IMG/VR virus record: IMGVR_UViG_3300029544_000001 | DNA: 64,000 bases | DNA from: a virus | Lineage: Duplodnaviria > Heunggongvirae > Uroviricota > Caudoviricetes | Strand: one strand, 5' to 3' | Part shown: positions 218 to 57,572 of the stretch, in pieces | Layout of the letters: every line of letters begins with the position of its first letter | How positions within the stretch are numbered: position 1 is the stretch's first letter | Program-made: the position numbers and the translations under genes | The notes under the pieces: model-generated | The model's input: only the letters and a program-made list of their open reading frames with translations | Database searches by the model: none | Told to the model about the DNA's origin: nothing

Positions 218-243
218 AGGGCTCACCCGATAATCATTGGGGG
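218..243. repeat. IS left terminal inverted repeat
   Basis: matches the reverse complement of 1612-1637 at about 21 of 26 positions. Confidence 0.65.
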
Positions 244-1226
244 TATGCATAAATCTTAGCCAGTCTAAAGAGGAAGAATTTCTCATCCACTACTCCTCTT
301 AATGCGGTTCTGAATTGTTTGATTTTCGCATTAAAGGATTCAGCCGCCGCATTAGAGGATCTTTTATTATAAAAGTTAAGAATATCATCATAATGTTCAT
401 AGAAGGTTGCTGCAATTACATTGAAAGCATGAAAGCCTGCCTCTTCCACTTTATTATACCATTTAGCCATACTCAATCTTGCCGCATCTTTGATTGTATT
501 TTTGGCAAGAATCATTCTGAGTGAATGACATAATCCATACGCCTGTCCCAATTCCGGATATTCCTTAAAAAGAATTTTGGCTCTTTGTTTTTGTGCTGGG
601 GTCCATTTTTCGGAGGATTTAAACAGCAGATAGCGGCTTCTTGCCAACAGTTCTTTCTTTGAATCTCCATTTTCATATCTCATAGGCACATATGATTCCC
701 CTTTCTGCTTTGCTTCTTCCATCTCATCATTGGCTTCCTGGATTGCGTCCCAGCGGAGTTTGATACGCATTTCCTGCACTGCATCGCAAGCTAATTTCTG
801 GATGTGGAACCGGTCTATTACACGAGATGCCTTGCGGAAACAGAAGCGGACTATTTTACGCATTGAGTCCGATAAATCAAGTGTCACTTCTTCTACACTG
901 TCCAACAGGTGTTCGGGAATATGGCGTAAAGCCGCTATGACCGTCTCTGACTTCGTCCCTGCAACAATGGCGACAAGGCACATCTCACGACCATGCCTGT
1001 CCCTGTTGGTTACTATTGTATAAAGGTCGCCATTCGACAGGGAAGTCTCGTCAATAGCCAGATTAGGTCCAATGTTCTCAGGAAAGACAAGCCACTCTTC
1101 CGCATGGCTCAACTCTTCCCAATTACGATAACCGCTTAGCACATCCTTGTATTGCTTCTCAAAGGTAGATGCGTCAATATGATAGAAATCATCAAGCGTA
1201 CGGCAGGTCACCGGGGATGTGTCCAT
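234..1226 (-). pseudogene. ISL3-family transposase, C-terminal DDE segment (orfB); frame-shifted relative to orfA at a T6A4 run, so either disrupted or needs a frameshift
   Basis: 330 aa; C-terminal ...NAAAESFNAKIKQFRTALRGV... is typical of ISL3 transposases; combined length ~440 aa matches an intact ISL3 transposase. Confidence 0.6.
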
Positions 1227-4725: not shown

Positions 4726-5152
4726 AATTACTATTTTTATCGAAAATAATTAGTTACTACTTCCATTTCTGGACACTTTAAGTTGATTGTTCACAACTCT
4801 ATTAGGATAATTTGTTGAGGAAGCAGGGAGAGTCGAAGACCCAGCCACTTTATAGCAGGACATTAACAGTGTGTTACTTTCATTTACCCATACTTCCTTT
4901 ACAAATGACAGCTTTTTGAGCAAAATATTTACCTTTGCAAGCAATATGACTAAACCTACGGGTAAATCGAATCATTTTAGCCAAGAGCGAAGAGACAATA
5001 TAGTTGCAATCAGTGTTGTCCTTCAGACAGTTATAGCTGTCATATCTCTTTTGATTCAACTTTGCGAATAGCCGCTGTCATTTTGATTTCACAACCATAT
5101 TAGCCCTATGGTTGTCATCTTTGGGGAGTAATTTCAACTCCCCATTTTTATG

Positions 5153-5223
5153 AGGCCCATGCAGGAATCGAACCTGCGATCATGGTTTTGCAGACCATTG
5201 CCTTACCACTTGGCTAATGAACC
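5153..5223 (-). tRNA. tRNA-Cys (GCA)
   Basis: 71 nt; acceptor GGTTCAT/ATGGGCC (two GU pairs), anticodon loop CTGCAAA, T-arm GCAGGTTCGATTCCTGC. Confidence 0.85.
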
Positions 5224-5306
5224 AGATAGCTGGAAGTTTCACAACTTCACAGCTTCGCGGAAAGAAAAATAAGCTAATCCAATAACAATCTTTTTAACCT
5301 TAAATG

Positions 5307-5378
5307 CGCTCTTAGATGGATTTGAACCACCGACCTGATGATTAACAGTCATCTGCTCTACCACTAAGCTATAAGAGC
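5307..5378 (-). tRNA. tRNA-Asn (GTT)
   Basis: 72 nt; acceptor GCTCTTA/TAAGAGC, anticodon loop CTGTTAA, T-arm GGTGGTTCAAATCCATC. Confidence 0.85.
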
Positions 5379-5423
5379 AAATGATGTCTTTATCTCCCTA
5401 ACCGACCCATCCCCTTTCGGCGA

Positions 5424-5447
5424 TGGTGGAGGAATCGAACACTCCCA
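5424..5447 (-). other. tRNA-like fragment: T-arm-like hairpin GGGAGTGTTCGATTCCTCC followed by ACCA; no complete cloverleaf could be folded
   Basis: GGTTCGATTCC-type T-loop motif without recognisable D or anticodon arms. Confidence 0.3.
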
Positions 5448-5470
5448 TAAAGACATCTAACATACCGATT

Positions 5471-5920
5471 CTACCAACAGCTCGGTATCACACTCCCGGA
5501 CCAACGATTCCGGACAGGGCTTAGTTTACTTGTATATTGACTTGTCTCAACATAACCTGCATGTTCGTTCCCTTGTACTTCGGGCTTGTTGTACTCGGTA
5601 ATGGAGTCGAACCATTCTTTTCTGCTCGAAAGGCAGATGTCCTTTCCGATAGACGAACCGAGCAAACAGCCGGATTTTTCACCGGCTTTTGGCCAAAAAG
5701 TTTTAACTTTGCAGCCGTAATGGAAATTTATTTGCTGTTGCTTGTCCTCCTTGTACGGGAAATTCGCGCCCTCGTAAAGGAAATCAAAAGACGATAAGCC
5801 GTCCGTAGGACGTAAAAACAACAATTGAGCTTTCTTGCCATTTGGAATGTGAAATACGATCGGTTCACAGGCATTCAAGCATTTTACATAATTTCCATCC
5901 AGAGGAATAAAGGGGTGCAA
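5471..5920 (-). CDS. hypothetical protein (149 aa), uncertain
   Basis: ORF with non-repetitive composition between tRNA genes. Confidence 0.3.
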   Translation of the reverse strand: MHPFIPLDGNYVKCLNACEPIVFHIPNGKKAQLLFLRPTDGLSSFDFLYEGANFPYKEDKQQQINFHYGCKVKTFWPKAGEKSGCLLGSSIGKDICLSSRKEWFDSITEYNKPEVQGNEHAGYVETSQYTSKLSPVRNRWSGSVIPSCW

Positions 5921-6028
5921 AACATTTTTCCAAGATGTTTCTTAACAACCCATGCAGCCATCCCAGCGAAACCAAAGTTGGAAACTACATGGATCGCACC
6001 CCTCCTCTTTCCAATTTATTTATGAGTT

Positions 6029-6820
6029 TTAATTCGTCATCTTCAGAAATTCTGGAATTACCCCATACAGCGGTGTTTTTCCGTCCCATTTATCAATAAA
6101 CTGTTTATATAGAATTTCTTTAGTTAACCCTTTCGATGTGATAAGAGCCTGTTCGGTTTTTAATCTTTCCAGTTCGTTTTGCTTTTTCTGCTCTTCGATT
6201 TTCTGATCAATAACGGAAATATTAGTGTTAACCTCGTTTCTATTATCAATCTTTTCCCGGACTCGATCGCTAAATTCTAATTGGGCTGAAAATGACTTCA
6301 GGTCCAATCCTCTATCTTTAAATTCCGCCCTAACAATATCCTCCAGCTTCTTCTCAAAAGCTAAAGAACCCCCATCAGCCATAAGTGTATCTGTTTTATA
6401 TTTCCGGCTTTCTTCTTTAATAAGGTCGTAAATACGTGGTTCCAGAATATTGTCTTCCAAAGATCTCATAAATCCATCTCCGTTTCCGATATGTTTATTA
6501 TCAAAAACAACGTCAATTGCCTTGTCTTTGATAACTCTATATGAGTATAACGGAGTAGCATTGAACTCTGTATTGTCAGCAGCTTTTAGGGTAACTGATT
6601 TCTGAAATCCTCCACGCTGTTCAAACAATGGCACCTGAAACAACTCTGTTCCCCATTCCCATGTGGAAACTTTTCCGGATACAATCTTAAAATCTTCTTT
6701 ACCTTCCTTACCATAATTCTCCATAAGGACACCGGCATAGTTAGGAGCAACACGCTCACAAGATGAAAAAATCACTGTTGCCATAAGAGCAACCAACATA
6801 AACTTAATCTTCGTTTTCAT
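6029..6820 (-). CDS. lipoprotein (signal peptide + lipobox VIFSSC) with coiled-coil C-terminal half
   Basis: N-terminal MKTKIKFMLVALMATVIFSSC; 263 aa. Confidence 0.55.
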   Translation of the reverse strand: MKTKIKFMLVALMATVIFSSCERVAPNYAGVLMENYGKEGKEDFKIVSGKVSTWEWGTELFQVPLFEQRGGFQKSVTLKAADNTEFNATPLYSYRVIKDKAIDVVFDNKHIGNGDGFMRSLEDNILEPRIYDLIKEESRKYKTDTLMADGGSLAFEKKLEDIVRAEFKDRGLDLKSFSAQLEFSDRVREKIDNRNEVNTNISVIDQKIEEQKKQNELERLKTEQALITSKGLTKEILYKQFIDKWDGKTPLYGVIPEFLKMTN

Positions 6821-7025
6821 GTTTTTTGATAATTAATTTAATGATGTTAATAACTGGATAGCAAACCCCAAAACATATAGCAATTCCCAACCAAGCGTCA
6901 ACATGATTGAATACTCTATTGCCTATGAATAAGACCGCTATCATAAAAAAGAATTGTTCTATATACTTTTTCATCGCATATTAAGTTTGGTATATTTCAA
7001 AGAACTCTTATTGACTTATGTCATT

Positions 7026-7111
7026 GTGCCGCAAACAGGAGTCGAACCTGCATTATCCATTCGGACAAATGGATTTTAAGTCCATCGTGTCTACCAATTC
7101 CACCATTGCGG
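7026..7111 (-). tRNA. tRNA-Leu (TAA), long variable arm
   Basis: 86 nt; acceptor GCCGCAA/TTGCGGC, anticodon loop CTTAAAA, T-arm GCAGGTTCGACTCCTGT. Confidence 0.85.
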
Positions 7112-7362
7112 CATCATCTTATCAAGCCTTAAAGAACAAAGAAAAAATCCGGATAAAGAATGAGTTTCGGGTTTTCATCTTCTCCAACTCTTTATTGTCT
7201 TTTCTCAATTTCTTAATGTCTGCTTTATTGGAAGACACGTGTGTTTTAGCTCTCGTATTCAACTCCACTAAGGACTGAACCAATTGTCTCAAATTGGCAA
7301 TAATATTTGCCCTTTCAGATATGATTTGCTCTTTCATACTATAATTAATTTAATTAGTTAGT

Positions 7363-7435
7363 GGCGGAGAGCCGGACTCGAACCGGCGACCTCTTGGTTA
7401 TGAGCCAAGCGAGCTACCAACTGCTCCATCCCGCT
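7363..7435 (-). tRNA. tRNA-Met (CAT) with defective acceptor stem (5' AGCGGGA versus 3' TCTCCGC); possible pseudogene or 1-nt indel
   Basis: D-arm, anticodon arm (CTTGG-CTCATAA-CCAAG) and T-arm (GCCGG-TTCGAGT-CCGGC) are canonical; only 4 of 7 acceptor pairs form; restoring GCGGAGA would give 7 of 7. Confidence 0.6.
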
Positions 7436-9760: not shown

Positions 9761-10080
9761 TTCTTTATCACTATTTTAGTTTGAAGGATTATAGATTTGG
9801 AGTCTTCAATATCACGTATAAGATTAAATGAATCTTCCAATAAGGCCAACATAACACGATTACTTTCTTCATGTGTCATATTTTCCCAGTCAATTTCTAA
9901 TTGTTTAGCTATTTCTTTCGCTAACTCATAAAACTTATTTGTCTTTGGAATATCCGTGACATCATATATTTCGTTTTGCTTTTGACCGAACAATAAACGG
10001 CTTAACTCATAATAACGAAAAAACGCCTCCAAAGTCTTCTTCTTATCTGGAGGCGCAATAGATAATTTGTTTTTTGTCAT
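9757..10080 (-). CDS. hypothetical protein
   Basis: 107 aa, 4-nt overlap with downstream gene. Confidence 0.4.
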   Translation of the reverse strand: MTKNKLSIAPPDKKKTLEAFFRYYELSRLLFGQKQNEIYDVTDIPKTNKFYELAKEIAKQLEIDWENMTHEESNRVMLALLEDSFNLIRDIEDSKSIILQTKIVIKK

Positions 10081-10099
10081 ATTTATAAATGATTATATA

Positions 10100-10345
10100 C
10101 GATTATCAACGATTTGTGTAATTTTGTAACCAACATGGTAAGATTAGTCATGTTGGTTGCCCTTTTAGTAGCAAACCTCACCGATGCGCCTGGAATATCA
10201 TGGATCAATTATGCTATTCTGGTTTATGATATTATTTCAGCCGCCATCGCAAGGTTTGCAGGACTAACCAAAAGGAGTCAGAAAGACTCTGCAAATTGAT
10301 GAATTTTATCTGTATGGCTGGAGAATATATCTCCGGCCTTTTTTA
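10100..10345 (+). ncRNA. candidate small RNA or short-peptide element, copy 1 (conserved 5' hairpin CCAACATG...CATGTTGG, 3' intrinsic terminator)
   Basis: nucleotide-level homolog of 13990-14238; terminator GGCTGGAGAATATATCTCCGGCC+T6 at 10316-10345; contains 61-aa ORF 10114..10299. Confidence 0.4.
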
Positions 10346-10412
10346 AGTAATAGTTGAAACTGGATAGGATTAGTTTAGAAAACCAAGTACATTATTGGAA
10401 AATTAATTGGCT

Positions 10413-10434
10413 ACAATTGTATTCAATTATCAAT
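10413..10434 (+). promoter_or_regulatory. conserved promoter/operator motif ACAATTGTATTCAATTATCAAT (palindromic core ACAATTGT) upstream of a -7 TAnnTTTG element
   Basis: near-identical 22-mer at 11229-11250; each is followed ~10 nt later by TAtcTTTG or TAtaTTTG and then a + strand small gene. Confidence 0.5.
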
Positions 10435-10479
10435 AAATAGCAGTATCTTTGCTGAAACGATTAATAAATATTTATCATT

Positions 10480-10653
10480 ATGAATATAGAAATTGGAGAC
10501 AGCGTAAAAATTGTCAATGCCATTGATCCCATAAAGATGGTTGTTATAGATAAAATAGACAATGATCATTTAACCGCAGTGTACTGGAGTCATACCCAAG
10601 GAGCATATCTTACAATAACAGGAAATATAAATGCTTTCGTAAAAATTGACTAA
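10480..10653 (+). CDS. small protein (57 aa), below ORF-track threshold
   Basis: ATG...TAA ORF downstream of the conserved promoter motif. Confidence 0.35.
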   Translation: MNIEIGDSVKIVNAIDPIKMVVIDKIDNDHLTAVYWSHTQGAYLTITGNINAFVKID

Positions 10654-10801
10654 CAAGCCCATTGCTTTTTATAATAAAATATAGGAACACACAAAAAACG
10701 TATCTCGACAACAATATACGAAGAATCAGTGTCCCTATATTTTTTTGCTTCAATAATAGCTTTCATATAACAAAATTTTATTCAATAATAATATTATAAT
10801 T

Positions 10802-11146
10802 TTAGCGTTGGTCCATATAGGCTAGTTCAACAAGGTCCCAAACCTTATCTGCTAAATATACTTCTATCAGCCTTACTTCATTTGCTATATTCGCATCATT
10901 AAGGGGGTATTTCCCCTTACATGATTGTTTTCCACGTAACCTTTCCAGAACATCCGTATCAACAGTTACCTTGAAAAGTTTAGGAGCTTTTTTATTCTCT
11001 TCTTCTATTTGAGGAATAATCTCAGTAATAAAATCAAAGGATGTCTTCTGCTTATCCAATATGAACTCTACCAAACGGTCGGTATTGTGTAAGGCATATC
11101 TACTTTTTAATGCCAAAAATAATTTTGCATTTTTAGGCTCTTCCAT
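10802..11146 (-). CDS. hypothetical protein; weak paralog of 11532..11903
   Basis: 114 aa; shared N-terminal L.LAL(K/H)(S/K)RY and identical leader motif. Confidence 0.45.
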   Translation of the reverse strand: MEEPKNAKLFLALKSRYALHNTDRLVEFILDKQKTSFDFITEIIPQIEEENKKAPKLFKVTVDTDVLERLRGKQSCKGKYPLNDANIANEVRLIEVYLADKVWDLVELAYMDQR

Positions 11147-11228
11147 ATTCTTTATCGTTTTCTATAGAATAGAATGAAAAAAGGGGAATGGTTATGTTAT
11201 TGGATTTATTTTGAAAAATTTATTAACC

Positions 11229-11250
11229 ACAATTGTGCTCAATTATCAAT
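11229..11250 (+). promoter_or_regulatory. second copy of the conserved promoter/operator motif ACAATTGTGCTCAATTATCAAT
   Basis: see 10413-10434. Confidence 0.5.
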
Positions 11251-11286
11251 GATTTTATATATTTGTGATTAAAAACAATTAATACT

Positions 11287-11535
11287 ATGAACATAAAAGA
11301 AAAAGAGCAAATTGAATTGTTAAGTAAAGTTATTGGAAGACGAATCAACCATGAAAACGACTCTTATATCGCAACACGTATTTGGGATGGGTGTTGCACC
11401 TATCTTTCTGCCAATAGACAACTTTTTTCAACTTTCAAGAACGGTATTCCCGAATATCATGTAGAAGAAGCTATAAAAGTTGTAATAATGTATATCAACG
11501 ACCGACATAAACCTGCTTTCTATCCAGAAGACTAA
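11287..11535 (+). CDS. small hypothetical protein (82 aa)
   Basis: + strand ORF downstream of the second promoter motif. Confidence 0.45.
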   Translation: MNIKEKEQIELLSKVIGRRINHENDSYIATRIWDGCCTYLSANRQLFSTFKNGIPEYHVEEAIKVVIMYINDRHKPAFYPED

Positions 11536-11903
11536 CGCACAGAAGAAGCCTGCATCGCAAAAGCAAGCACCTCTCCTGCAAAATTATTTATTACATTTAG
11601 AGCGTAATTTTTCCAATGTTCAGAAATTTGTACCCCATATTCCTCTTCCAATTTCTGAACATTGGAAGGATTAAATTCTATATTTATGAGTTTTGATAAA
11701 TGCACGCACTTATCCTCGATTTCTGCCAGTACGTCATATACATTCTCAACTGTTGCTTTATCATCTAATACCAATTCCTGAATATTATCTGCTGCCCATA
11801 TAACGGGGTATCTTTTATGCAACGCCAATGAAAGTTTTCTTTCTAAAGAAGTTGAATGTATATCTATATTGTTACTTTCGTTTGTATGCAACTCTTTTTC
11901 CAT
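11532..11903 (-). CDS. hypothetical protein; weak paralog of 10802..11146
   Basis: 123 aa. Confidence 0.45.
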   Translation of the reverse strand: MEKELHTNESNNIDIHSTSLERKLSLALHKRYPVIWAADNIQELVLDDKATVENVYDVLAEIEDKCVHLSKLINIEFNPSNVQKLEEEYGVQISEHWKNYALNVINNFAGEVLAFAMQASSVR

Positions 11904-12011: not shown

Positions 12012-12281
12012 TCATCTTTTAGATCTAAAAAACGATATACCCAAAGCATAAATAACGATACCAATTACCCCAATAGCTAAGAAAAACTTATATAGTAATT
12101 CATAATGTTCGTCATACATATACAAAAGGAAAAAAGTAAATACAGACACTAATAACATACATGTACTATATCTTTTCCACGAAATACGTTGACTTTTTTC
12201 TTTTTTTAAAGACAACCCACATATAACAGCAATGCAAGGTGTTACTATAATCCAAATAATAACACAAATAAACGCAACCAT
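12012..12281 (-). CDS. small membrane protein (3 predicted TM helices)
   Basis: 89 aa, hydrophobic, immediately downstream of an HTH gene. Confidence 0.45.
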   Translation of the reverse strand: MVAFICVIIWIIVTPCIAVICGLSLKKEKSQRISWKRYSTCMLLVSVFTFFLLYMYDEHYELLYKFFLAIGVIGIVIYALGISFFRSKR

Positions 12282-12286
12282 AGCAA

Positions 12287-12643
12287 TTATTGTTTTTCGA
12301 TATTAATTGTATATCCCAGAACATCTACTGTTTTAAGTAATGTATCTATACTAATAGTAGTTGTTTTTCTCTCAATATTCGCAATTGTAAGGTGAGAATA
12401 CCCTGCTTTTTCAGCCAAAGCTCTCTGTGAAATTGCTTTTTCTTTACGAATTAATGCTAATATACTTCCTAATTCTTGTGCATCATTTGTACGATATGAA
12501 TGTTGGCCGTTCTCAATTACAAGAATATGCTGTAGTGCTTTAATATACGACATCATATTCCCCATCTCAAAATTGCTACTTCCTTTTTCTAAACGATATA
12601 TAGCAGTAGGCATAACCCCCATTTGAAAACAAATATCTTTCAT
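12287..12643 (-). CDS. XRE-family HTH regulator (HTH at the C-terminus)
   Basis: ISQRALAEKAGYSHLTIANIERKTTTISIDTLLKTVDVLGYTINI. Confidence 0.6.
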   Translation of the reverse strand: MKDICFQMGVMPTAIYRLEKGSSNFEMGNMMSYIKALQHILVIENGQHSYRTNDAQELGSILALIRKEKAISQRALAEKAGYSHLTIANIERKTTTISIDTLLKTVDVLGYTINIEKQ

Positions 12644-12702
12644 TTTAATGGTAGATTCAAAGGCAATTTGTAATAACTAAAGTTTTATTTTCCAAGTCCT
12701 TT

Positions 12703-13257
12703 TTATGATTCCCAATTAAAGGCTGCGTTCCAAATAGCACAAAGGGCAATAATAGTTATTATTAGGCTCATAATATATCCAAATATTCGAGCATTATTTC
12801 TCTCACTCATCCCCCAAACAATAGAATATGATCCGCCTAATACAAAAATGAAAAATAATGTATTGGCTATACCAGCATTACCAATAGCTAAAAAAATTAC
12901 AAAGAGTACAAACGATGCCAATACAATACCCATAAATTTAAATAACCAGCCCCATCTTTTGTCTGACTTAGATTCTGGTGAGGGAGTTATACCTTCCATA
13001 ATATAATTATAATAATCAGTATTAAGCAGAACTTCCTTTGCATAATCACCCATGTCACTTCTATCAAACAATAGTCTTACAATTATATCTTTAGATTCTT
13101 CTATACCTTTTCCTGTAATATTAGAATACCAATTTACAATATTATATATATTTTCTCCTTCCCTAAATTTTGCACATATCTGTTCGTCAGATATTGTAGG
13201 GCTAAACAGTTCTTTTTTCTCTATTTGATGAGGGTCCGAAGTGTTCATTGTTTTCAA
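12703..13257 (-). CDS. membrane protein, soluble N-terminal domain plus 4 C-terminal TM helices
   Basis: 184 aa; overlaps upstream HTH gene by 55 nt. Confidence 0.45.
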   Translation of the reverse strand: MKTMNTSDPHQIEKKELFSPTISDEQICAKFREGENIYNIVNWYSNITGKGIEESKDIIVRLLFDRSDMGDYAKEVLLNTDYYNYIMEGITPSPESKSDKRWGWLFKFMGIVLASFVLFVIFLAIGNAGIANTLFFIFVLGGSYSIVWGMSERNNARIFGYIMSLIITIIALCAIWNAAFNWES

Positions 13258-13687
13258 TTTTTATTGTATATCCTAAGACATCTACAATTTTAAGTAATGT
13301 ATCTATTCTAACAATATGTTTTTTCGATTCAATATTAGCGATTGTAACATACGTTATTCCGGCTTTATCAGCTAACGCACGCTGAGTATATTCAAGTTTA
13401 CGAGTGGATGTCATCCAATCTGCAAAACCCTCAAAATCACAAATAACTTTCCTTTTTTTGCCTTTTAACAAAACCATTTTAGATTTTATAGCCGCCAAAT
13501 AAGTACAAACAAGATTTATATTATAATTATTTGACGCTTTCTCTAAATACTGCAATTGATTAAATGTAAATCCTGTCAAACGACATAGTTCATTTTTACC
13601 TATACCCGCAGACTCACGTTGCACTATTAATTGTTGGCTAAACTCAATTCGATTCATTATATTATAATTTGTAGAACAAAAATACAA
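13202..13687 (-). CDS. tandem-HTH XRE-family regulator; paralog of 12287..12643
   Basis: N-terminal HTH (QRESAGIGKNELCRLTGFTFNQLQYLE) and C-terminal HTH (TQRALADKAGITYVTIANIESKKHIVRIDTLLKIVDVLGYTIKI). Confidence 0.6.
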   Translation of the reverse strand: MYFCSTNYNIMNRIEFSQQLIVQRESAGIGKNELCRLTGFTFNQLQYLEKASNNYNINLVCTYLAAIKSKMVLLKGKKRKVICDFEGFADWMTSTRKLEYTQRALADKAGITYVTIANIESKKHIVRIDTLLKIVDVLGYTIKIENNEHFGPSSNREKRTV

Positions 13688-13715
13688 TAAAGTATTTTAT
13701 ACTGCAAAATATTTA

Positions 13716-13989: not shown

Positions 13990-14238
13990 TATTATTAAAT
14001 TTGTAGCCAACTATGATAATGAATATCATGTTGGCTACTCTTTTAATGGCAAATTCCGTTGATTACCAAGAGGTAAGGGTTGCTATTGTTCTGTATGCTA
14101 TTGCCCAAGTATTACGACAATCAGCAGCCTTAATCAAGGCTATCACAAAATTTGCACGGGTGGTCAAGCGAGGCAAGACCTCTTACAATTGATTATTTTT
14201 ATCTTAGCTGGAGTGCGGAATATCGCACTCCTTTTTAT
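13990..14238 (+). ncRNA. candidate small RNA or short-peptide element, copy 2 (homolog of 10100-10345)
   Basis: hairpin CCAACTATG...CATGTTGG at 14008-14035; terminator GGAGTGCG-loop-CGCACTCC+T5 at 14208-14238; only a 48-aa ORF (14046..14192) remains in frame. Confidence 0.4.
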
Positions 14239-21882: not shown

Positions 21883-21935
21883 GTGTCAAAAATATTCTGC
21901 CACCCATACCATATCAAATATGGGTGGCGATAATA

Positions 21936-22661: not shown

Positions 22662-22928
22662 TTAGAACCACACCAATAGCCTTGGAGTCTTCCAATAAAA
22701 ATTGAATACTGGGAATATCTCTTTAAGTGTGGTGGTTATTTTTCCTGTAATATTTTTCACATGTCTAATTCGCAAATGATTAGCTGTTACGATATAGTCT
22801 ATTCCTGGGTGTAAACCTATTTGCGAAAGAAGCGATTTCAAGAATATTTTTATATGTTGCTTTGCATCAGTAATTGAACGATAGCCAAAATCAATGTTAG
22901 CTACATACTTGATACGCTTGCGTTTCAT
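22662..22928 (-). CDS. hypothetical protein
   Basis: 88 aa; overlaps the upstream HTH gene by 4 nt. Confidence 0.4.
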   Translation of the reverse strand: MKRKRIKYVANIDFGYRSITDAKQHIKIFLKSLLSQIGLHPGIDYIVTANHLRIRHVKNITGKITTTLKEIFPVFNFYWKTPRLLVWF

Positions 22929-23233
22929 TTATTTTTCAACTTGTTATTAAACTTGATCTTTCCATTTTTATATAAATCAATTTTCTTTTTTCGATACTTC
23001 CGTTTTAACTCTGTCCAATATTCTGTTGGATATTGTTTAGAGTGCTTGCGAACAGGAGGAGATAGTATAGATTGTATAAGCCGCTTACTAACATTGAACA
23101 TAGCGGCCAGTCTTCTTTGGCTATATCCTTCACGGGCCAAAATCTGAATAGCCTGGCGTTGTTCTGGTGACAACTTAGCGCGACCATCAAATTTGGTTCC
23201 TGCCAACTTGATATTCTCAATTCTCAATGGCAT
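22925..23233 (-). CDS. small basic HTH protein; paralog of 28915..29238
   Basis: MPLRIENIKLAGTKFDGRAKLSPEQRQAIQILAREGYSQRRLAAMFNVSKRLIQSI aligns with the paralog. Confidence 0.55.
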   Translation of the reverse strand: MPLRIENIKLAGTKFDGRAKLSPEQRQAIQILAREGYSQRRLAAMFNVSKRLIQSILSPPVRKHSKQYPTEYWTELKRKYRKKKIDLYKNGKIKFNNKLKNK

Positions 23234-23368
23234 ATTTGTTACTGTTTTAATGTGAATAGATTTTATAGTTTTATATGGTGTGAATAGTTGTCCACTTTAA
23301 CCATTGTTTAACACAAAAGGCTGCTCTATTTTGTTAGAACAGCCTTTGCTTTACAGACATCATTTTAA

Positions 23369-27649: not shown

Positions 27650-28918
27650 TTACAATATTGCCACTAAAGTATTGTACGCTGCTCTTCTGGTCAAAATAGC
27701 ATTCTGCATACAACCTATTGTCAAATAACCTTCAATTTCTTTACTCTTAGATTTATTTCGATTAGCCTTTACGTTCCGACCAATACCTCTAACAACACAA
27801 CCATCCGGCTTATCCTTAACATAGCCAAGGCCACCAACTTTATGTTTCCCAGTTTCAACGGCTCTAAGGCAATCCATTACGAATTTATTCAATTCATTAA
27901 TATCAACCCGAACATTACATACTGGAAGGGTCTGAGTCGCCCAACTATATTCTCCATTGCCTTTATATAAATATCGGTTAACCGAATCCACAGCCTTCTT
28001 CAACGTAATACCACGTTTTCTGATGGTTCTTGATTCTATTTCTTTCTGGAAGGTTTTAAGACGATTGGGAGAGAAAGAAATCATACTTCCCTTAATGCTG
28101 AAACCTAGAAATTTGAACCACTTGTCCATAGTCAGGTACTCTACTTTCTTGGGATTCAAATTCATTGATTTTTCGGCCAATCTCTTTTGTAAAATGGTCA
28201 TAGCCTTTTCATAGTCCGGACCAACGAACAACATATCATCCGAATACCTTACGTAAAACCCATTCAATTGGGACAGTTCATCATCCAAGCTATATAGCAA
28301 CACGTTGGCTAACCAGCTTGCTACTGCGCATCCTTGTTTAAGTGATTGATATTTCTCATGCAGTTCGTTGTTCTCATCGAAATACAATCCGCAATGATAG
28401 TATTTTCTTAATACATCAATTAACACAGAGTGACCATACTTAGCTTCCACCTTATCAAAAGCTGCGTCAATAAACCGGATAGGAACAGTGTCGAAATATT
28501 TACTTAAATCAGATTTCCAGCCCACATAACCATCACTTTTCATGTCAACAATTGTGTGACTTACTTCCAGAACCACTTTACCGCAACCAATACCGACCTG
28601 ATAAGATTTACAAGCAGGATGAATCATCTCTGGCATTAAATCAAATAGCAAATCATTCGCGATGCTTAGGATTATACGATCAATAGGTTCGTTGACATAT
28701 ACAGTACGAAACTCTCCGTTATCCTTCGGAATTTGTGCAATATGTGGTGGTGTTATTTGATATTTACCATTCAACATAGCTTCTGCCATACGAATTCTGG
28801 TTGGTTCTTCTGTCAGTTTGATAAGTTCGCTCTTCCGAATATCCTTCAGAACGCCTTTCTCAATTGCTTTTGTCCATCTATTAATGTCGAAGAACATTGT
28901 AAGAATCTTATCTTTCAT
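27650..28918 (-). CDS. reverse transcriptase (RT domains 1-7; class unresolved)
   Basis: IPKDNGEFRTVYVNEPIDRII, DLSKYFDTV, QGCAVASWLANVLL, YVRYSDDMLFVG, NPKKVEYL, FLGFSI. Confidence 0.75.
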   Translation of the reverse strand: MKDKILTMFFDINRWTKAIEKGVLKDIRKSELIKLTEEPTRIRMAEAMLNGKYQITPPHIAQIPKDNGEFRTVYVNEPIDRIILSIANDLLFDLMPEMIHPACKSYQVGIGCGKVVLEVSHTIVDMKSDGYVGWKSDLSKYFDTVPIRFIDAAFDKVEAKYGHSVLIDVLRKYYHCGLYFDENNELHEKYQSLKQGCAVASWLANVLLYSLDDELSQLNGFYVRYSDDMLFVGPDYEKAMTILQKRLAEKSMNLNPKKVEYLTMDKWFKFLGFSIKGSMISFSPNRLKTFQKEIESRTIRKRGITLKKAVDSVNRYLYKGNGEYSWATQTLPVCNVRVDINELNKFVMDCLRAVETGKHKVGGLGYVKDKPDGCVVRGIGRNVKANRNKSKSKEIEGYLTIGCMQNAILTRRAAYNTLVAIL

Positions 28919-36662: not shown

Positions 36663-37355
36663 TTATGCAGCCATTCGCGCATCATATTCCGCACGCTTTT
36701 GAGCATTTCCCAGAACTTCCCATGCTGCATTTACCTCTTGCATCTTTTCATTGGAACCACCGGCATCAGGATGAGCAGATTTAGCAGCTTGTTTGTATGC
36801 AGCTTTAATTTCCGCTTCCGTAGCATCATGCTTCACACCCAAGATTTCATAATAGTTAGCGGCTTTTGCGACTACTTCTTCAAAGTTCAAACGGAATTTC
36901 AGAGCATCGAAAGACGCTTTTGTAGCAGCATGGATTTTCTTCTTAAAATCACGCGCTGCACAATCCAGGTCTTTCTTTGTAGGCACCAAACCAATACGGC
37001 TCCATACACTTCCCTCAACATCCCACTTCTTTGACACTTTGCAATCACTTGTACGCACTATGATTTCAGCCGGTGTACCGCTACGCAATTTGGATGCAAT
37101 ACCACCATTATCTTCACGCAGCCCAGCTTCCACCGCTTTCACAGTCCAGAACGTAGCTACCACATTCTTCCACACGCGGAAAATCTCGTCCTGTGTCTTA
37201 TCCTTTGGCGTGTATTCATCACCGGCAAAATTCAGTCCTGAATAATGCGTTTCTCCGTCACGGTTTACACTCTTATACACCAAAGTTACGCCTACCAACT
37301 CGTTTGCGTTCAAGTTCTCAAATTGTACACTGTTATACCTACTAATTGTTCCCAT
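36663..37355 (-). CDS. J-domain (DnaJ-like) protein with unknown N-terminal domain
   Basis: C-terminal YYEILGVKHDATEAEIKAAYKQAAKSAHPDAGG...AWEVLGNAQKRAEYD with the HPD tripeptide. Confidence 0.65.
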   Translation of the reverse strand: MGTISRYNSVQFENLNANELVGVTLVYKSVNRDGETHYSGLNFAGDEYTPKDKTQDEIFRVWKNVVATFWTVKAVEAGLREDNGGIASKLRSGTPAEIIVRTSDCKVSKKWDVEGSVWSRIGLVPTKKDLDCAARDFKKKIHAATKASFDALKFRLNFEEVVAKAANYYEILGVKHDATEAEIKAAYKQAAKSAHPDAGGSNEKMQEVNAAWEVLGNAQKRAEYDARMAA

Positions 37356-37430: not shown

Positions 37431-39102
37431 TAGGAACGCACCACCGAAAACGTTTACACGCTTTCGATTGCGTTAAAGCCCAATCAGAGCATACTGGACA
37501 TTCACCTATCCAGCACACTCTATGTACAACTTTTTGCCCGTCACTAACAGCGCAACGGAGCCGTGCGCCCTGTGTATGAGTGCTCACCAACTGCAACCAA
37601 ACCGATTGAATTGCAGCTTTTTACATACGCTTTCGCCTATGTGGTAGGTAATTTCCATCGTTACCGTTAAAGCACACTTTTGGCATACACTTTTTCACTG
37701 TTAGGGCTGCGTTGCGTTGGTGATTACATATATACGCAAGGGCATATATCTTTCTCAGTTCGCATTAGGGGCAGATTTTCACACCTTTGTGTAAACATCC
37801 GTTTTTCGGTATGCAGTTGGCAACTGGGCACAACTATGGCACAAAGTTTACACTTTTCCCTTTTGCTGCATGGAGCTACGCACCTATGGCACGCTTTTGA
37901 AGCAGACTTATGTATATAGCTCCCCCATAGTGCCAGCGACGGTTTGCATGACAATCTTTAATAACTGACCATTACAGTTATGGGTATTCTTTTCCCGTTC
38001 ACAAAACATCCCGTTTTATGTCTGAGCGTGCGCTTTTGCTTTCGCTTTCGCACTCCTTTTGCTTTTATGTACTACTTTCTTTTGTCCGTTTCTTACTTCT
38101 TGTTTTTACGGTTATTAATTACGTTTATTATCTCGTATCTGTTTGCGGTTTTCGCTTTTTGTAGGTTTACAGATAAAACCAAAACGGAAAGTAAACACTT
38201 TATCAAGTAGCCGTTATCTTAACTTGACGTTGCAAAGATATGGCAAACATTTGGAACTGCAAAGTATTTTAGCAAAAAACTTTCATTTTAAGGCTAAAAT
38301 AATTTGCAAACACTTGATTTTCAGATACATAAAAACATCAACAAAACAGATAAATCTATAAATAGCTGATAATCAACAAAATAATCATCTCAACACGTGC
38401 GCGTGTACGCGGGGTTATTTATTAGGGCAAATCGTGACACACATACACACACATATACGCGCGGGATGTTGTTACCTGGATGCAAAAAGGAACGGGAACA
38501 AATCACATACACAAAAGGGTAAATTTGTAATAATTTCAAAAGAGTATCAAAAACAAAAGAATAGGCAAAACAAAGAACAAAAGCACATTTGTTTCACTTT
38601 TGTATATTAGTGAAACAATATAATTAACTGATTTACAGCAATATGGCAATAAAAAATATAAAAAAAAGAAGGCAGAGCCGGTCAATTATGGAGCGAATAC
38701 CGTATATATAATCCGACCTGATTTTTCAATCTCGTTTTTTCAAAAGTCGATCATAGTACAAAAAGCCAATTCTCTTCCAGACCACGTTATTCAATACAAT
38801 AAAATTATCTCCAATTTCTAACATCAATTTTATAATATATCGAATCTGGAAGTAGAGATTTCGTAATTATCCCAGCATCAATTTATTAACTTTATTTTTT
38901 ATAATACAGAGAAATAATTATTTTCCAATATATTCAAATTGACAACGATATAAAAATTCAATATATAAGTTTTCTGATTTTTTTCAGCCACCTATTTTTT
39001 CAGTCTCGTTTTGTGGTAATTAAGCTAAATTTTTATATCCAAATTGATGTTTATCAAAAAATCATATTACATTTGCCTAACAATTGATTATTTTATCCAA
39101 AT

Positions 39103-42026: not shown

Positions 42027-42761
42027 TTATTTCAAGTTTTTTGTCATTAATATAAAATCATATTTTAATGGATCCTCTGCATCCCATTGGCGATAAACAT
42101 GAGTGAGTTCCATAACAGCCTTCCAGCTTTCTTTAGGATAAGATATAATCCCCATACGTTGTGCTTGCTGCGCAACATGGGTATCCATAACAGCGTATAG
42201 TTTTTTAGGTTTGATTAAGTCAGTCTGCCATACTCCTAAATCTATTTCATCTTTACGAACCATCCAACGCAATAGCATATTAATACGTTTACAAGCAGAG
42301 TTACGATATGGACTTCCAAGACGGGCCGGTTCACACCAATTACATAGCGTGAGTAATAAATCATCAAGTGAAATGGGATGTTTTTTTAAATATTCCTGAA
42401 TAGAATCGTGTTTACTGTAGAAGTATCTTAATTGATGACACACCTCTTTAAATATTTTTCCTGTAAGAGTACGGTAAATATTACATTCGTCCGGAATATC
42501 ATAAAAATCACCAAATTTAATATACTTACCTGGCTCCCATCCACATACGTCCATCAACTTCTCTGCACAATATATTATATGACTATATTGTCCCCATGAA
42601 ACCATAGCCGTCCATATTGCACAAACCTCAATATCCGCTGTAGTTCTCCCAGAAAGATTCCGTATCTGGTGTACTATTTGAATAGGATCATTTGAGATAA
42701 ACGCTTTATGGTCAAACTGATTCCACATTCGTTCCATCTCATTTTTTAATGTATATATCAT
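42027..42761 (-). CDS. hypothetical protein
   Basis: 244 aa. Confidence 0.45.
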   Translation of the reverse strand: MIYTLKNEMERMWNQFDHKAFISNDPIQIVHQIRNLSGRTTADIEVCAIWTAMVSWGQYSHIIYCAEKLMDVCGWEPGKYIKFGDFYDIPDECNIYRTLTGKIFKEVCHQLRYFYSKHDSIQEYLKKHPISLDDLLLTLCNWCEPARLGSPYRNSACKRINMLLRWMVRKDEIDLGVWQTDLIKPKKLYAVMDTHVAQQAQRMGIISYPKESWKAVMELTHVYRQWDAEDPLKYDFILMTKNLK

Positions 42762-44318: not shown

Positions 44319-44439
44319 AATTATATCAATTCATTTACTCAATGCAAAAGTATGATATTACATCCAATTATACAAATTTAGAAGCGATTAATATCAATTT
44401 AAATCAATATTAATCGCTAATATATTGCAATACAACAAT

Positions 44440-56612: not shown

Positions 56613-56681
56613 ATCCGTTTTATAGTGCAGAATTGACGACTAAGCTCAAATATGCACTTTTTACGTTGCAAAAATAATGTT

Positions 56682-57572
56682 TTATTTCCAATCTACAAAA
56701 TTCAGTAAGTGTATTTTTGAGCAATCCTTAATTATTTGGTTTGTTTTACCACTTCTTTTTATGTTTACCAGATGATTTATGTCTTGTTCAAGCTCTTTTT
56801 GCCTATTTATTGATATTTTACCAAGTATATAATCAATAACACCAATAATGCCACTAACATATTGCCGGGATTGATTATCGACATTTGCTGGATGTACCTT
56901 TACGCCCAATGGCAATGTGATATTATACAAACAACTACCATGTGCACATTTGTTTCTGATAAACATGATTGTTTCAAGATAATTCTTGAATATTCCTATT
57001 GTACAACCGTATTTGTTTGCTATCTGTAATTGAACATCTTTATCTCGCAAACTTTTGTACAACATGCAAACATTGCCGATTGTCATAAATTCCAACGTTT
57101 TCCATGCAGGTGCATATCGGTCATTTATGTGAGTTTTATGATGACGCAGAATAACCGGATTCTTAGAAATCTGTGCATACACCATATCGTCAAATGTATT
57201 GATAAAAGATGAAAGCATAATTGCAGGATCTACAAACCATGTAGGAGAATTTTTATAATGGTTTGATATAATATATGTGATAGTTGTGCGGATATTGACT
57301 TCTATTCTATTTAATGCGTTCAATAGAACCCTTCTCAAATCATAATCGAAATAATACAAATCCACAATTTCCTTAAAAGAAGTGCCTTTACACAGTTTAT
57401 GGTTGCGATTCCTTAGACTGGGAAAAGTTTTTTCAAACGGAAAAGAATAGAATCCCAATCTATAATACCCCACATCTAGTAAAATCTCCTTTGCCTTCTC
57501 TTCATCCTCAAAGACCATACCATGTTCTTTGAGTTTATTTATCTGTTCTTCTATATTCAATGCGTGTTTCAT
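56682..57572 (-). CDS. Abi_2-family abortive infection protein (AbiD/AbiF-like) inserted antisense in the tail module
   Basis: N-terminal MKHALNIEEQINKLKEHGMVFEDEEKAKEILLDVGYYRLGFYSFPFE matches the conserved Abi_2 start (..EQI..LK..G....DE.KA...L..I.YYRLS.Y); 296 aa. Confidence 0.7.
   Translation of the reverse strand: MKHALNIEEQINKLKEHGMVFEDEEKAKEILLDVGYYRLGFYSFPFEKTFPSLRNRNHKLCKGTSFKEIVDLYYFDYDLRRVLLNALNRIEVNIRTTITYIISNHYKNSPTWFVDPAIMLSSFINTFDDMVYAQISKNPVILRHHKTHINDRYAPAWKTLEFMTIGNVCMLYKSLRDKDVQLQIANKYGCTIGIFKNYLETIMFIRNKCAHGSCLYNITLPLGVKVHPANVDNQSRQYVSGIIGVIDYILGKISINRQKELEQDINHLVNIKRSGKTNQIIKDCSKIHLLNFVDWK

Follow-up and report, generated by a model that had tools for sequence, protein, structure and literature searches.

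How did a tailed phage come to carry two successive gene pairs, each made up of a helix-turn-helix (HTH) regulator followed by a small membrane protein, and what might such pairs do? They lie in the IMG/VR record IMGVR_UViG_3300029544_000001 (Caudoviricetes), of which we analysed one stretch of 64,000 nucleotides (nt), hereafter the window. An earlier note on this DNA had described a tandem duplication of a two-gene cassette. The four open reading frames (ORFs) are where it placed them, all on the minus strand, but a duplication was not what we found: a fixed slot has A2-M2, the second pair, as its resident allele, and a diverged allele, A1-M1, has been stacked in front as the first pair. The stacking truncated the resident regulator. 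The region is laid out as follows, with proteins measured in amino acids (aa) and TM denoting transmembrane segments.

13677..13708, minus strand: promoter, a match to the Bacteroides consensus
13202..13657, minus strand: A1, regulator of 151 aa, ATG at 13657 (ORF listed as 13202-13687)
12703..13248, minus strand: M1, membrane protein of 181 aa, ATG at 13248 (ORF listed as 12703-13257)
12644..12702, minus strand: spacer of 59 nt between M1 and A2, which holds the right junction (~12660) and 'STIK' remnant codons of the resident regulator
12287..12643, minus strand: A2, regulator of 118 aa, the resident allele, shortened at its N terminus
12012..12281, minus strand: M2, membrane protein of 89 aa with three TM
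12660..13715, minus strand: stacked segment (promoter, A1, M1 and ~43 nt), delimited by blastn collinearity with L033, L036 and L037 and by fine alignment of both junctions
12294..12390 with 13251-13347, minus strand: direct repeat of 97 nt at 79% identity, from a repeat search

Comparison with close relatives revealed how the two pairs came together (labels beginning with L denote IMG/VR relatives, and those beginning with P related public proteins). The sister prophages L033, L036 and L037, ~98% identical to the window in both flanks, lack A1-M1 and carry one 138-aa regulator followed by M2. Where these sisters have ~100 nt, made up of the resident promoter and the regulator's ~16 opening codons, the window has ~1.06 kb (~12660-13715). 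The left junction is the stop codon of the upstream 79-aa gene (13716), and fine alignment with L037 put the right junction at ~12660. A2 matches the 138-aa regulator of L037 and L055, both sister prophages with a single pair, at 98-99% identity over the shared part; its identity to P0032 is 85%. Set against full-length relatives, A2 covers their residues 21-137 and is without helix 1 of the N-terminal unit; the first ~20 residues, which A2 has lost, are kept in all 27 aligned relatives (129-149 aa), and the in-frame translation upstream of A2 contains stop codons. The C-terminal HTH of A2 is intact, as is its ORF in all double-pair loci, where the differences are mostly synonymous (ratio of nonsynonymous to synonymous rates 0-0.3, from small counts). 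Double pairs are a minority of the IMG/VR loci (n = 4, one of them built of different alleles).

Local tandem duplication of a single two-gene cassette, followed by divergence and with no particular function, would account for the paralogy of A1 and A2, for the gene order common to the two pairs and for the 97-nt repeat at the 3' ends of the regulator genes. That repeat, coding in both A2 and A1 for C-terminal parts (recognition and beta strand), is however the sole DNA-level similarity between the pairs. DNA similarity along the whole length, or a shared or ancestral copy in the sisters, as expected of a recent in-situ duplication, was not found. The identity of A1 to A2 (39%) falls short of its identity to regulators from other phages (49-54%), whereas A2 is nearly identical to the single-pair allele. 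Since the sisters carry the full-length A2-type allele and its partner alone, since A1-M1 brought along a diverged promoter, and since no relationship between M1 and M2 shows up even in family profiles, we conclude that the pairs did not arise by duplication in place, and we consider that explanation very improbable.

The gene boundaries bear on how tightly the pairs are organised. The likely starts of A1 and M1 are the ATG codons at 13657 and 13248, the same as those picked by public gene callers in eight other contigs. A TTG extension of A1 to 13687 would cover the -7 box of the promoter. With these starts, A1 and M1 overlap by 47 nt, and M2 begins 5 nt past the A2 stop codon.

The homology of the two regulators, which the earlier note had proposed, was borne out by BLASTP (39% identity over 114 aa, E = 2e-24). 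Both proteins scored above the Pfam gathering threshold for HTH_3 (PF01381), the membership criterion for the XRE / Cro-C1 type, A1 with 43.9 bits on residues 97-142 and A2 with 50.8 bits (cut-off 23). The N-terminal HTH unit of A1 was under the Pfam thresholds and became visible only through AlphaFold2 and hhalign. In the AlphaFold2 model of A1 (predicted local distance difference test, pLDDT, 89.8) each of two HTH units consists of four helices and leads into beta strands, which pack together, and the last 13 residues, which overlap the start of M1, are disordered. The family profiles of the N-terminal and C-terminal halves align in register (hhalign probability 89%, E = 2e-6), so the regulator is an internally duplicated, single-chain pseudo-dimer. 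A1 is a complete tandem, and A2, without its first ~20 residues, is not. An HMM scan of all window ORFs found no members of the family besides A1 and A2.

On the model, A1 is a single-chain tandem HipB-like fold. Each half is nearest to HipB (PDB 8ezt, 41% identity, TM-score 0.73-0.76; HipB profile E = 3.6e-9), and no PDB chain among those searched spans both halves (TM-score normalised to query ≤ 0.36). The architecture, a single-chain tandem HipB-like regulator, is uncommon, and none of the PDB chains searched is a full-length counterpart of it. HipB, both that of E. coli and Legionella HipB(Lp) (8ezt), resembles the A1 halves in having four helices and a C-terminal beta strand; it dimerises through that strand and autorepresses from palindromic operators, and we propose the same behaviour for A1. 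It differs in that A1 fuses two units in one chain and in that the gene downstream of A1 encodes a small membrane protein rather than the HipA kinase. The NCBIfam HipB models scored the two regulators under their cut-offs (TIGR03070, 45.7 and 53.5 bits against 71.65; PRK09726, 31.1 and 26.4 against 79), and with M1 and M2 lacking any Pfam or NCBIfam match and no HipA downstream, the pairs do not belong to HipBA. Against PADLOC-DB 2.0 the regulators matched generic HTH models only (HTH_VI, C-protein, the RmrA N terminus and CapH).

The membrane partners M1 and M2 had been judged not obviously related, and we agree: BLASTP gave no match between them, and comparison of their families by hhalign gave a probability of 0.5%. 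A deep common ancestry of M2 and the TM part of M1 (M1-TM) through duplication was also considered, and was rejected when comparison of the two family profiles showed no relationship. M1 had been credited with four TM helices; a Kyte-Doolittle scan and the AlphaFold2 helices (96-121, 128-146 and 152-177) both gave three, and M2 also has three. These helices form the C-terminal part of M1, after a soluble, predicted cytoplasmic helical domain of ~100 aa (pLDDT ~80). The M1 family comprises 16 representatives among 1.84 billion proteins, and most relatives of M1 are stand-alone 3-TM proteins of 79-105 aa that match M1-TM only. The sole PHROG match of M1 was weak (phrog_27946, unknown function, E = 0.0023). 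On this strand, 75 ORFs reach 60 aa or more; only five of them have two or more TM segments, M1 and M2 included.

In M2, the Kyte-Doolittle segments are 1-27, 38-56 and 59-87, and the protein ends in a basic tail, RSKR; its topology is likely N-out/C-in, judging from the sequence. For the M2 family, 34 homologues were detected, and the best-conserved stretch is YMYDEHYELLYKFF, between TM2 and TM3. Other relatives carry a third, unrelated partner family of 260-307 aa, with a soluble N-terminal domain of ~195 aa and one to three C-terminal TM helices, so that the partners amount to three unrelated major membrane families plus singletons. Scans of the partner types against Pfam, PHROG and PADLOC returned no annotated family, an NCBIfam scan of M1, M2 and the 260- and 303-aa partners gave no match, and nothing in PADLOC-DB 2.0 matched M1, M2 or the 260-303-aa partners. 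Class I holins of the lambda S type have three TM helices in about 90-110 aa and a charged C terminus; on hydropathy, M2 and the M1-TM proteins (80-100 aa, three predicted helices) may resemble them, M2 also in its basic C-terminal tail. They differ in that M1 and M2 lie beside early-region genes, not in the late region or next to an endolysin, and no holin family was matched in Pfam or PHROG.

Two short public contigs encode proteins (P0006 and P0007) in which the C terminus of A1 is fused in frame to M1 (...SSNREK-ELFSP...). This is the product expected of a one-A deletion in the AGAAAAAAGAA run (A6, window ~13205-13225), within the A1/M1 overlap. The fusion could reflect an error in sequencing the homopolymer (at about 13214-13219), or it could be genuine and anchor the regulator in the membrane.

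The promoter of the stacked segment (13677-13708) has the form TTTG-N20-TATTTTTG, with 19 nt separating the end of its -7 box from the A1 ATG. Of 25 distinct sequences upstream of the regulator in relatives, 21 keep the consensus at a distance of 14-24 nt from the start codon, with a spacer that diverges; in some of the other four, the start codon was probably misplaced. In the 64 kb there are six full matches to TTTG-N19-21-TAnnTTTG, where 2.1 would be expected by chance, and all six lie on the minus strand. No such site stands before A2 (12644-12702), so A1-M1-A2-M2 are most simply read as one operon, a reading that the conserved host-type promoter and the tight gene spacing also support. 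Within the promoter spacer, the palindrome AGTAT-AAA-ATACT (13691-13703) occurs exactly once in the window and is a candidate operator. The spacers of relatives have in common a semi-conserved, loose GTAnnnCAAATA element. As a multi-site operator, the palindrome AGTATnnnATACT was rejected, with one exact site and with one-mismatch matches at chance level in the window.

The six consensus sites (1577-1607, 13677-13708, 21887-21918, 38233-38263, 44345-44376 and 56669-56699) may, on their sequence, mark prophage transcription units that depend on the host sigma factor.

The window is part of a Bacteroides myophage of ~100 kb overall, and encodes a portal, a head protease, a tail sheath, a tape measure, an NAD-dependent ligase and a methyltransferase. 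Its portal is 68% identical to that of MT835494.1, an unannotated human-faecal phage record, and 58% identical to that of Bacteroides phage BS-TP1, which is temperate according to its authors (PMC12694917). We assessed prophage status by exact-sequence look-ups of the proteins. A1, A2, M1, M2 and the upstream 79-aa protein were each found, as exact sequences, on at least 1000 contigs under the label 'MULTISPECIES [Bacteroides]', and the single-pair regulator allele and a variant of the 79-aa gene were found on Bacteroides contigs of 5.9-6.7 Mb. These occurrences identify the element as a prophage that is integrated, very common and widespread in gut Bacteroides. Among GTDB representative genomes, a scan with M2 turned up a single 1.3-kb MAG contig, which was mis-binned. 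A blastn search with the region and tblastn searches with A1 and M1 found no match among 50,697 phage records, so the nearest isolates, BS-TP1 and MT835494.1, are without the regulator family.

Conservation of the gene pair as a unit was a check that the earlier note had proposed, and a regulator followed by a membrane protein was present in every related locus examined. Among 22 IMG/VR loci found via the regulator, the next gene encoded a membrane protein in all but one, which was cut by a contig end; the exception in layout is L027 and L031, where a second regulator comes next and the membrane protein after it. The gap between regulator and membrane gene in these loci ranged from -47 to +12 nt, and L009 and L012 have 4-nt ATGA overlaps. 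An independent set of loci, fetched via the neighbouring 79-aa gene rather than via the regulator, gave the same picture: a regulator follows the 79-aa gene in 33/33 untruncated close relatives, and a membrane protein comes next wherever the contig continues. The tight coupling of regulator and membrane protein is confirmed, and the prophage region in which it occurs also collects defence genes.

The content of the slot is hypervariable. Within flanks that are 94-100% identical, it holds at least five regulator alleles and at least four membrane types, namely M2 variants (55-100% identity), an 80-aa multi-TM protein, M1 and M1-TM. In relatives, M2 is always preceded by a regulator of the family, or by a regulator and an M1-TM-like gene. 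The latter arrangement (L040/L072) gives one regulator with two membrane genes, and L027 and L031 have two regulators with one. The N-terminal subtype of the regulator does not correspond one-to-one to the partner family, and neither type is tied to a single partner. Because regulator subtypes do not map to partners, a regulator with swappable cargo fits better than a cognate binding pair. The allele diversity, together with the presence or absence of A1-M1 between ~98% identical prophages, the GmrSD gene next to the cassette in some variants and the AbiD and UG27 genes of the same genome, would be consistent with the signature of an arms race.

A function in superinfection exclusion, abortive infection or toxin immunity, as first suggested for the pairs, is plausible on this analysis, although Pfam, PHROG, NCBIfam and PADLOC hold no family of such function that M1 or M2 matches. 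The explanation that we favour, and hold tentatively, is that the slot is an accessory operon which regulates itself and whose membrane proteins keep out superinfecting phage or abort its infection. In every relative the slot consists of the 79-aa gene, a host-type promoter, a tandem-HTH regulator and one or two small inner-membrane proteins. In the window, an incoming promoter, A1 and M1 replaced the resident promoter and the first ~16 codons, leaving a putative four-gene operon, A1-M1-A2(truncated)-M2, that would be transcribed from the A1 promoter. The HipB-like pseudo-dimer would bind its own promoter at the pseudo-palindrome in the spacer from the -33 box to the -7 box, and through this autorepression the operon would be expressed weakly in the lysogen. 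The membrane proteins would be the cargo. At the cytoplasmic membrane they would counter a superinfecting phage in one of two ways: its DNA might be kept out, or holin-like damage to the membrane might abort the infection. Two stacked cargo types could broaden the range of phages covered.

There is precedent for such an arrangement. In lambda cI-rexA-rexB, the HTH repressor of the prophage shares a transcript with an inner-membrane protein of several TM segments that counters other phages, and lactococcal Sie2009 and Ltp of TP-J34 are prophage exclusion genes linked to a repressor. The module in the window likewise lies in a variable, lysogen-relevant region. It differs from lambda Rex in that the pairs have no similarity to RexB, RexA or known superinfection-exclusion (Sie) proteins and include no RexA-like sensor gene. 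An immunity role for the window regulator, and exclusion activity for its partners, are putative. With no match of M1 or M2 other than the weak one to phrog_27946, and with no third gene, the pairs are not Rex systems by homology.

Several points weigh against the accessory-operon explanation. It assumes that the operon is active in the lysogen, and the cassette is co-directional with the long early-gene array, so an early lytic function rather than a lysogen-expressed one is possible. M1, M2 and the 260-307-aa partners have no similarity to known exclusion, abortive-infection, holin or defence families. The AlphaFold2 model of M1 is of low confidence overall (pLDDT 61), and a Foldseek search with this low-confidence model found no structural match for the M1 N-terminal domain. 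The TM topology was assigned by eye from hydropathy and the positive-inside rule rather than by a dedicated predictor. The candidate operator was chosen from a palindrome with 5-bp arms and a semi-conserved motif, and the pattern is not enriched in the window.

Two alternatives give the membrane proteins a more intimate relation to the regulator. The pairs could be membrane toxin/antitoxin systems, in which a HipB-like regulator, as a type II-style antitoxin, represses the operon and neutralises a holin-like toxin (M1 or M2), so that loss of the labile antitoxin on phage attack, or with loss of the prophage, kills the cell. The C-terminal HTH is indeed closest to the HipB / Y4mF antitoxins, the order is antitoxin first, the genes overlap (ATGA in L009 and L012, 47 nt in the window), and M2 has a holin-like shape. 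The HipB models nevertheless scored under their curated cut-offs, and neither HipA nor another known toxin was found. One regulator subtype precedes unrelated membrane families, which is hard to square with specific neutralisation, and gene numbers are unequal in L040/L072, L027 and L031; we regard the toxin/antitoxin account as unlikely. Alternatively, a cue from the membrane or from outside the cell could be sensed by the 3-TM protein, which would tune the HTH repressor and through it phage or host genes, as in a CylR1/CylR2-type switch or a split version of a membrane-bound XRE regulator. BcrR is such a membrane-bound XRE one-component regulator. In the Enterococcus faecalis cytolysin operon, CylR2 (a 66-aa HTH_3 protein) and CylR1 (three predicted TM) are co-transcribed and form a non-canonical two-component regulator (PMC3709268). 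The window resembles this system in placing an HTH_3 repressor beside a 3-TM protein of ~90 aa, CylR2 was among the PDB matches of the regulator family profile (E = 1e-4), the pairing of regulator and membrane protein is invariant, and there are the rare in-frame A1-M1 fusions. The gene order is however opposite to that of cylR1-cylR2, the HTH is in tandem, the host phylum and context are different, and the similarity to CylR2 is that of HTH_3 proteins generally. Unrelated partner families swap freely relative to the regulator subtype, and the single candidate operator is at the operon's own promoter. The fusions are possibly sequencing errors, since they come from two short contigs and a one-A homopolymer difference. 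A switch of this kind therefore seems rather doubtful.

A further alternative puts the weight on the regulator itself, as a CI-like immunity repressor with a Rex-like accessory membrane protein; regulator alleles would then define immunity groups, and the window phage would be doubly immune. Diverged alleles with co-varying promoter spacers, in phages that are 94-100% identical, are the classical signature of an immunity region. In L009-L014 the regulator is divergent from a 186-aa gene across an 82-nt intergenic region, and the P22 c2 and P2 C repressors ranked 14 and 29 in a structure search with the A1 halves (E = 0.05-0.08). In the window lineage, by contrast, the regulator is co-directional with the early genes and has no divergent partner, and no homologue is present in the wider group (BS-TP1 and MT835494.1). 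The candidate operator is at a single site and not at several early promoters. The recognition-helix region is the best-conserved part of the regulator across alleles, which is the opposite of what heteroimmunity predicts, and we find this account hard to favour. Going beyond the accessory operon, the slot could be a modular 'exclusion-group' determinant, not described before, in one of the most prevalent Bacteroides prophages of the human gut, in which a single-chain pseudo-dimeric repressor and a small interchangeable membrane effector together decide which related phages a lysogen admits; we offer this as a speculative extension with a small chance of being right. If it were true, alleles would be shuffled and stacked to widen protection. 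In a sharper variant, at which the fusions would hint, the membrane protein physically controls the regulator as a split, membrane-tethered one-component switch.

Other genes of the prophage vary or concern defence. A 422-aa reverse transcriptase (27650-28918, minus strand) matched PADLOC RT_UG27 almost end to end (E = 4e-231), and is not obviously the reverse transcriptase of a diversity-generating retroelement or group II intron (TIGR04416, 98 bits against a cut-off of 300). A homologue of AbiD/Abi_2 (56682-57572, minus strand; PADLOC AbiD E = 2e-53, Pfam Abi_2 E = 2e-43) is opposite in strand to the surrounding plus-strand block of tail genes, in the manner of a moron. Directly downstream of M2, L004, L005 and L007 carry a 559-aa type IV restriction gene with GmrSD_N and GmrSD_C domains (9974-11653, corresponding to window ~10800-11900), in place of the 123-aa, 82-aa and 114-aa ORFs of the window. 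Other variants have a 217-aa ExoX-like_C protein at this position, which looks like a cargo hotspot adjoining the cassette. On its other side, in the ~650-nt gap upstream of the 79-aa gene, lies a hydrophobic 59-aa ORF (14013-14192, plus strand), followed by a GC-rich hairpin (14210-14231) and a run of T. L004 and L006 have a 148-aa gene in place of the 59-aa ORF, making this a second variable position. L015-L018 contain a three-gene group with no counterpart in the window (for example L016 7345-8763), a 182-aa protein overlapping a 152-aa HTH_3 protein and then a 140-aa protein, which may be another regulator-linked accessory module.

The early region also contains five clustered tRNA genes (Cys, Asn, Glu, Leu and Met; 5152-7434), a 123-aa protein resembling HTH_38 / sigma-70 region 4 (22925-23296), a DnaJ-domain protein (36663-37355) and a DUF2400 protein (42027-42761), all on the minus strand. 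An ISL3-family transposase (DDE_Tnp_ISL3, E = 4e-49; 234-1226, minus strand) lies inside the prophage. Several cassette-bearing metagenome contigs stop roughly where this element would be expected, which suggests that assemblies break there.

A prophage accessory operon made up of an HTH regulator and a membrane effector is familiar; a tandem HipB-like regulator with orphan membrane families is not. To our knowledge, allele shuffling and stacking in this slot have not been described before. Bacteroides prophages are abundant in the human gut, and as far as we know their superinfection and immunity determinants are almost uncharacterised. Thousands of assemblies (roughly 5,000) carry the slot, and its content is hypervariable among near-identical prophages. 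If it governs exclusion between phages, it would help to explain strain-level phage susceptibility in Bacteroides, and it would offer Bacteroides genetics a compact, self-regulated module of promoter, repressor and cargo.

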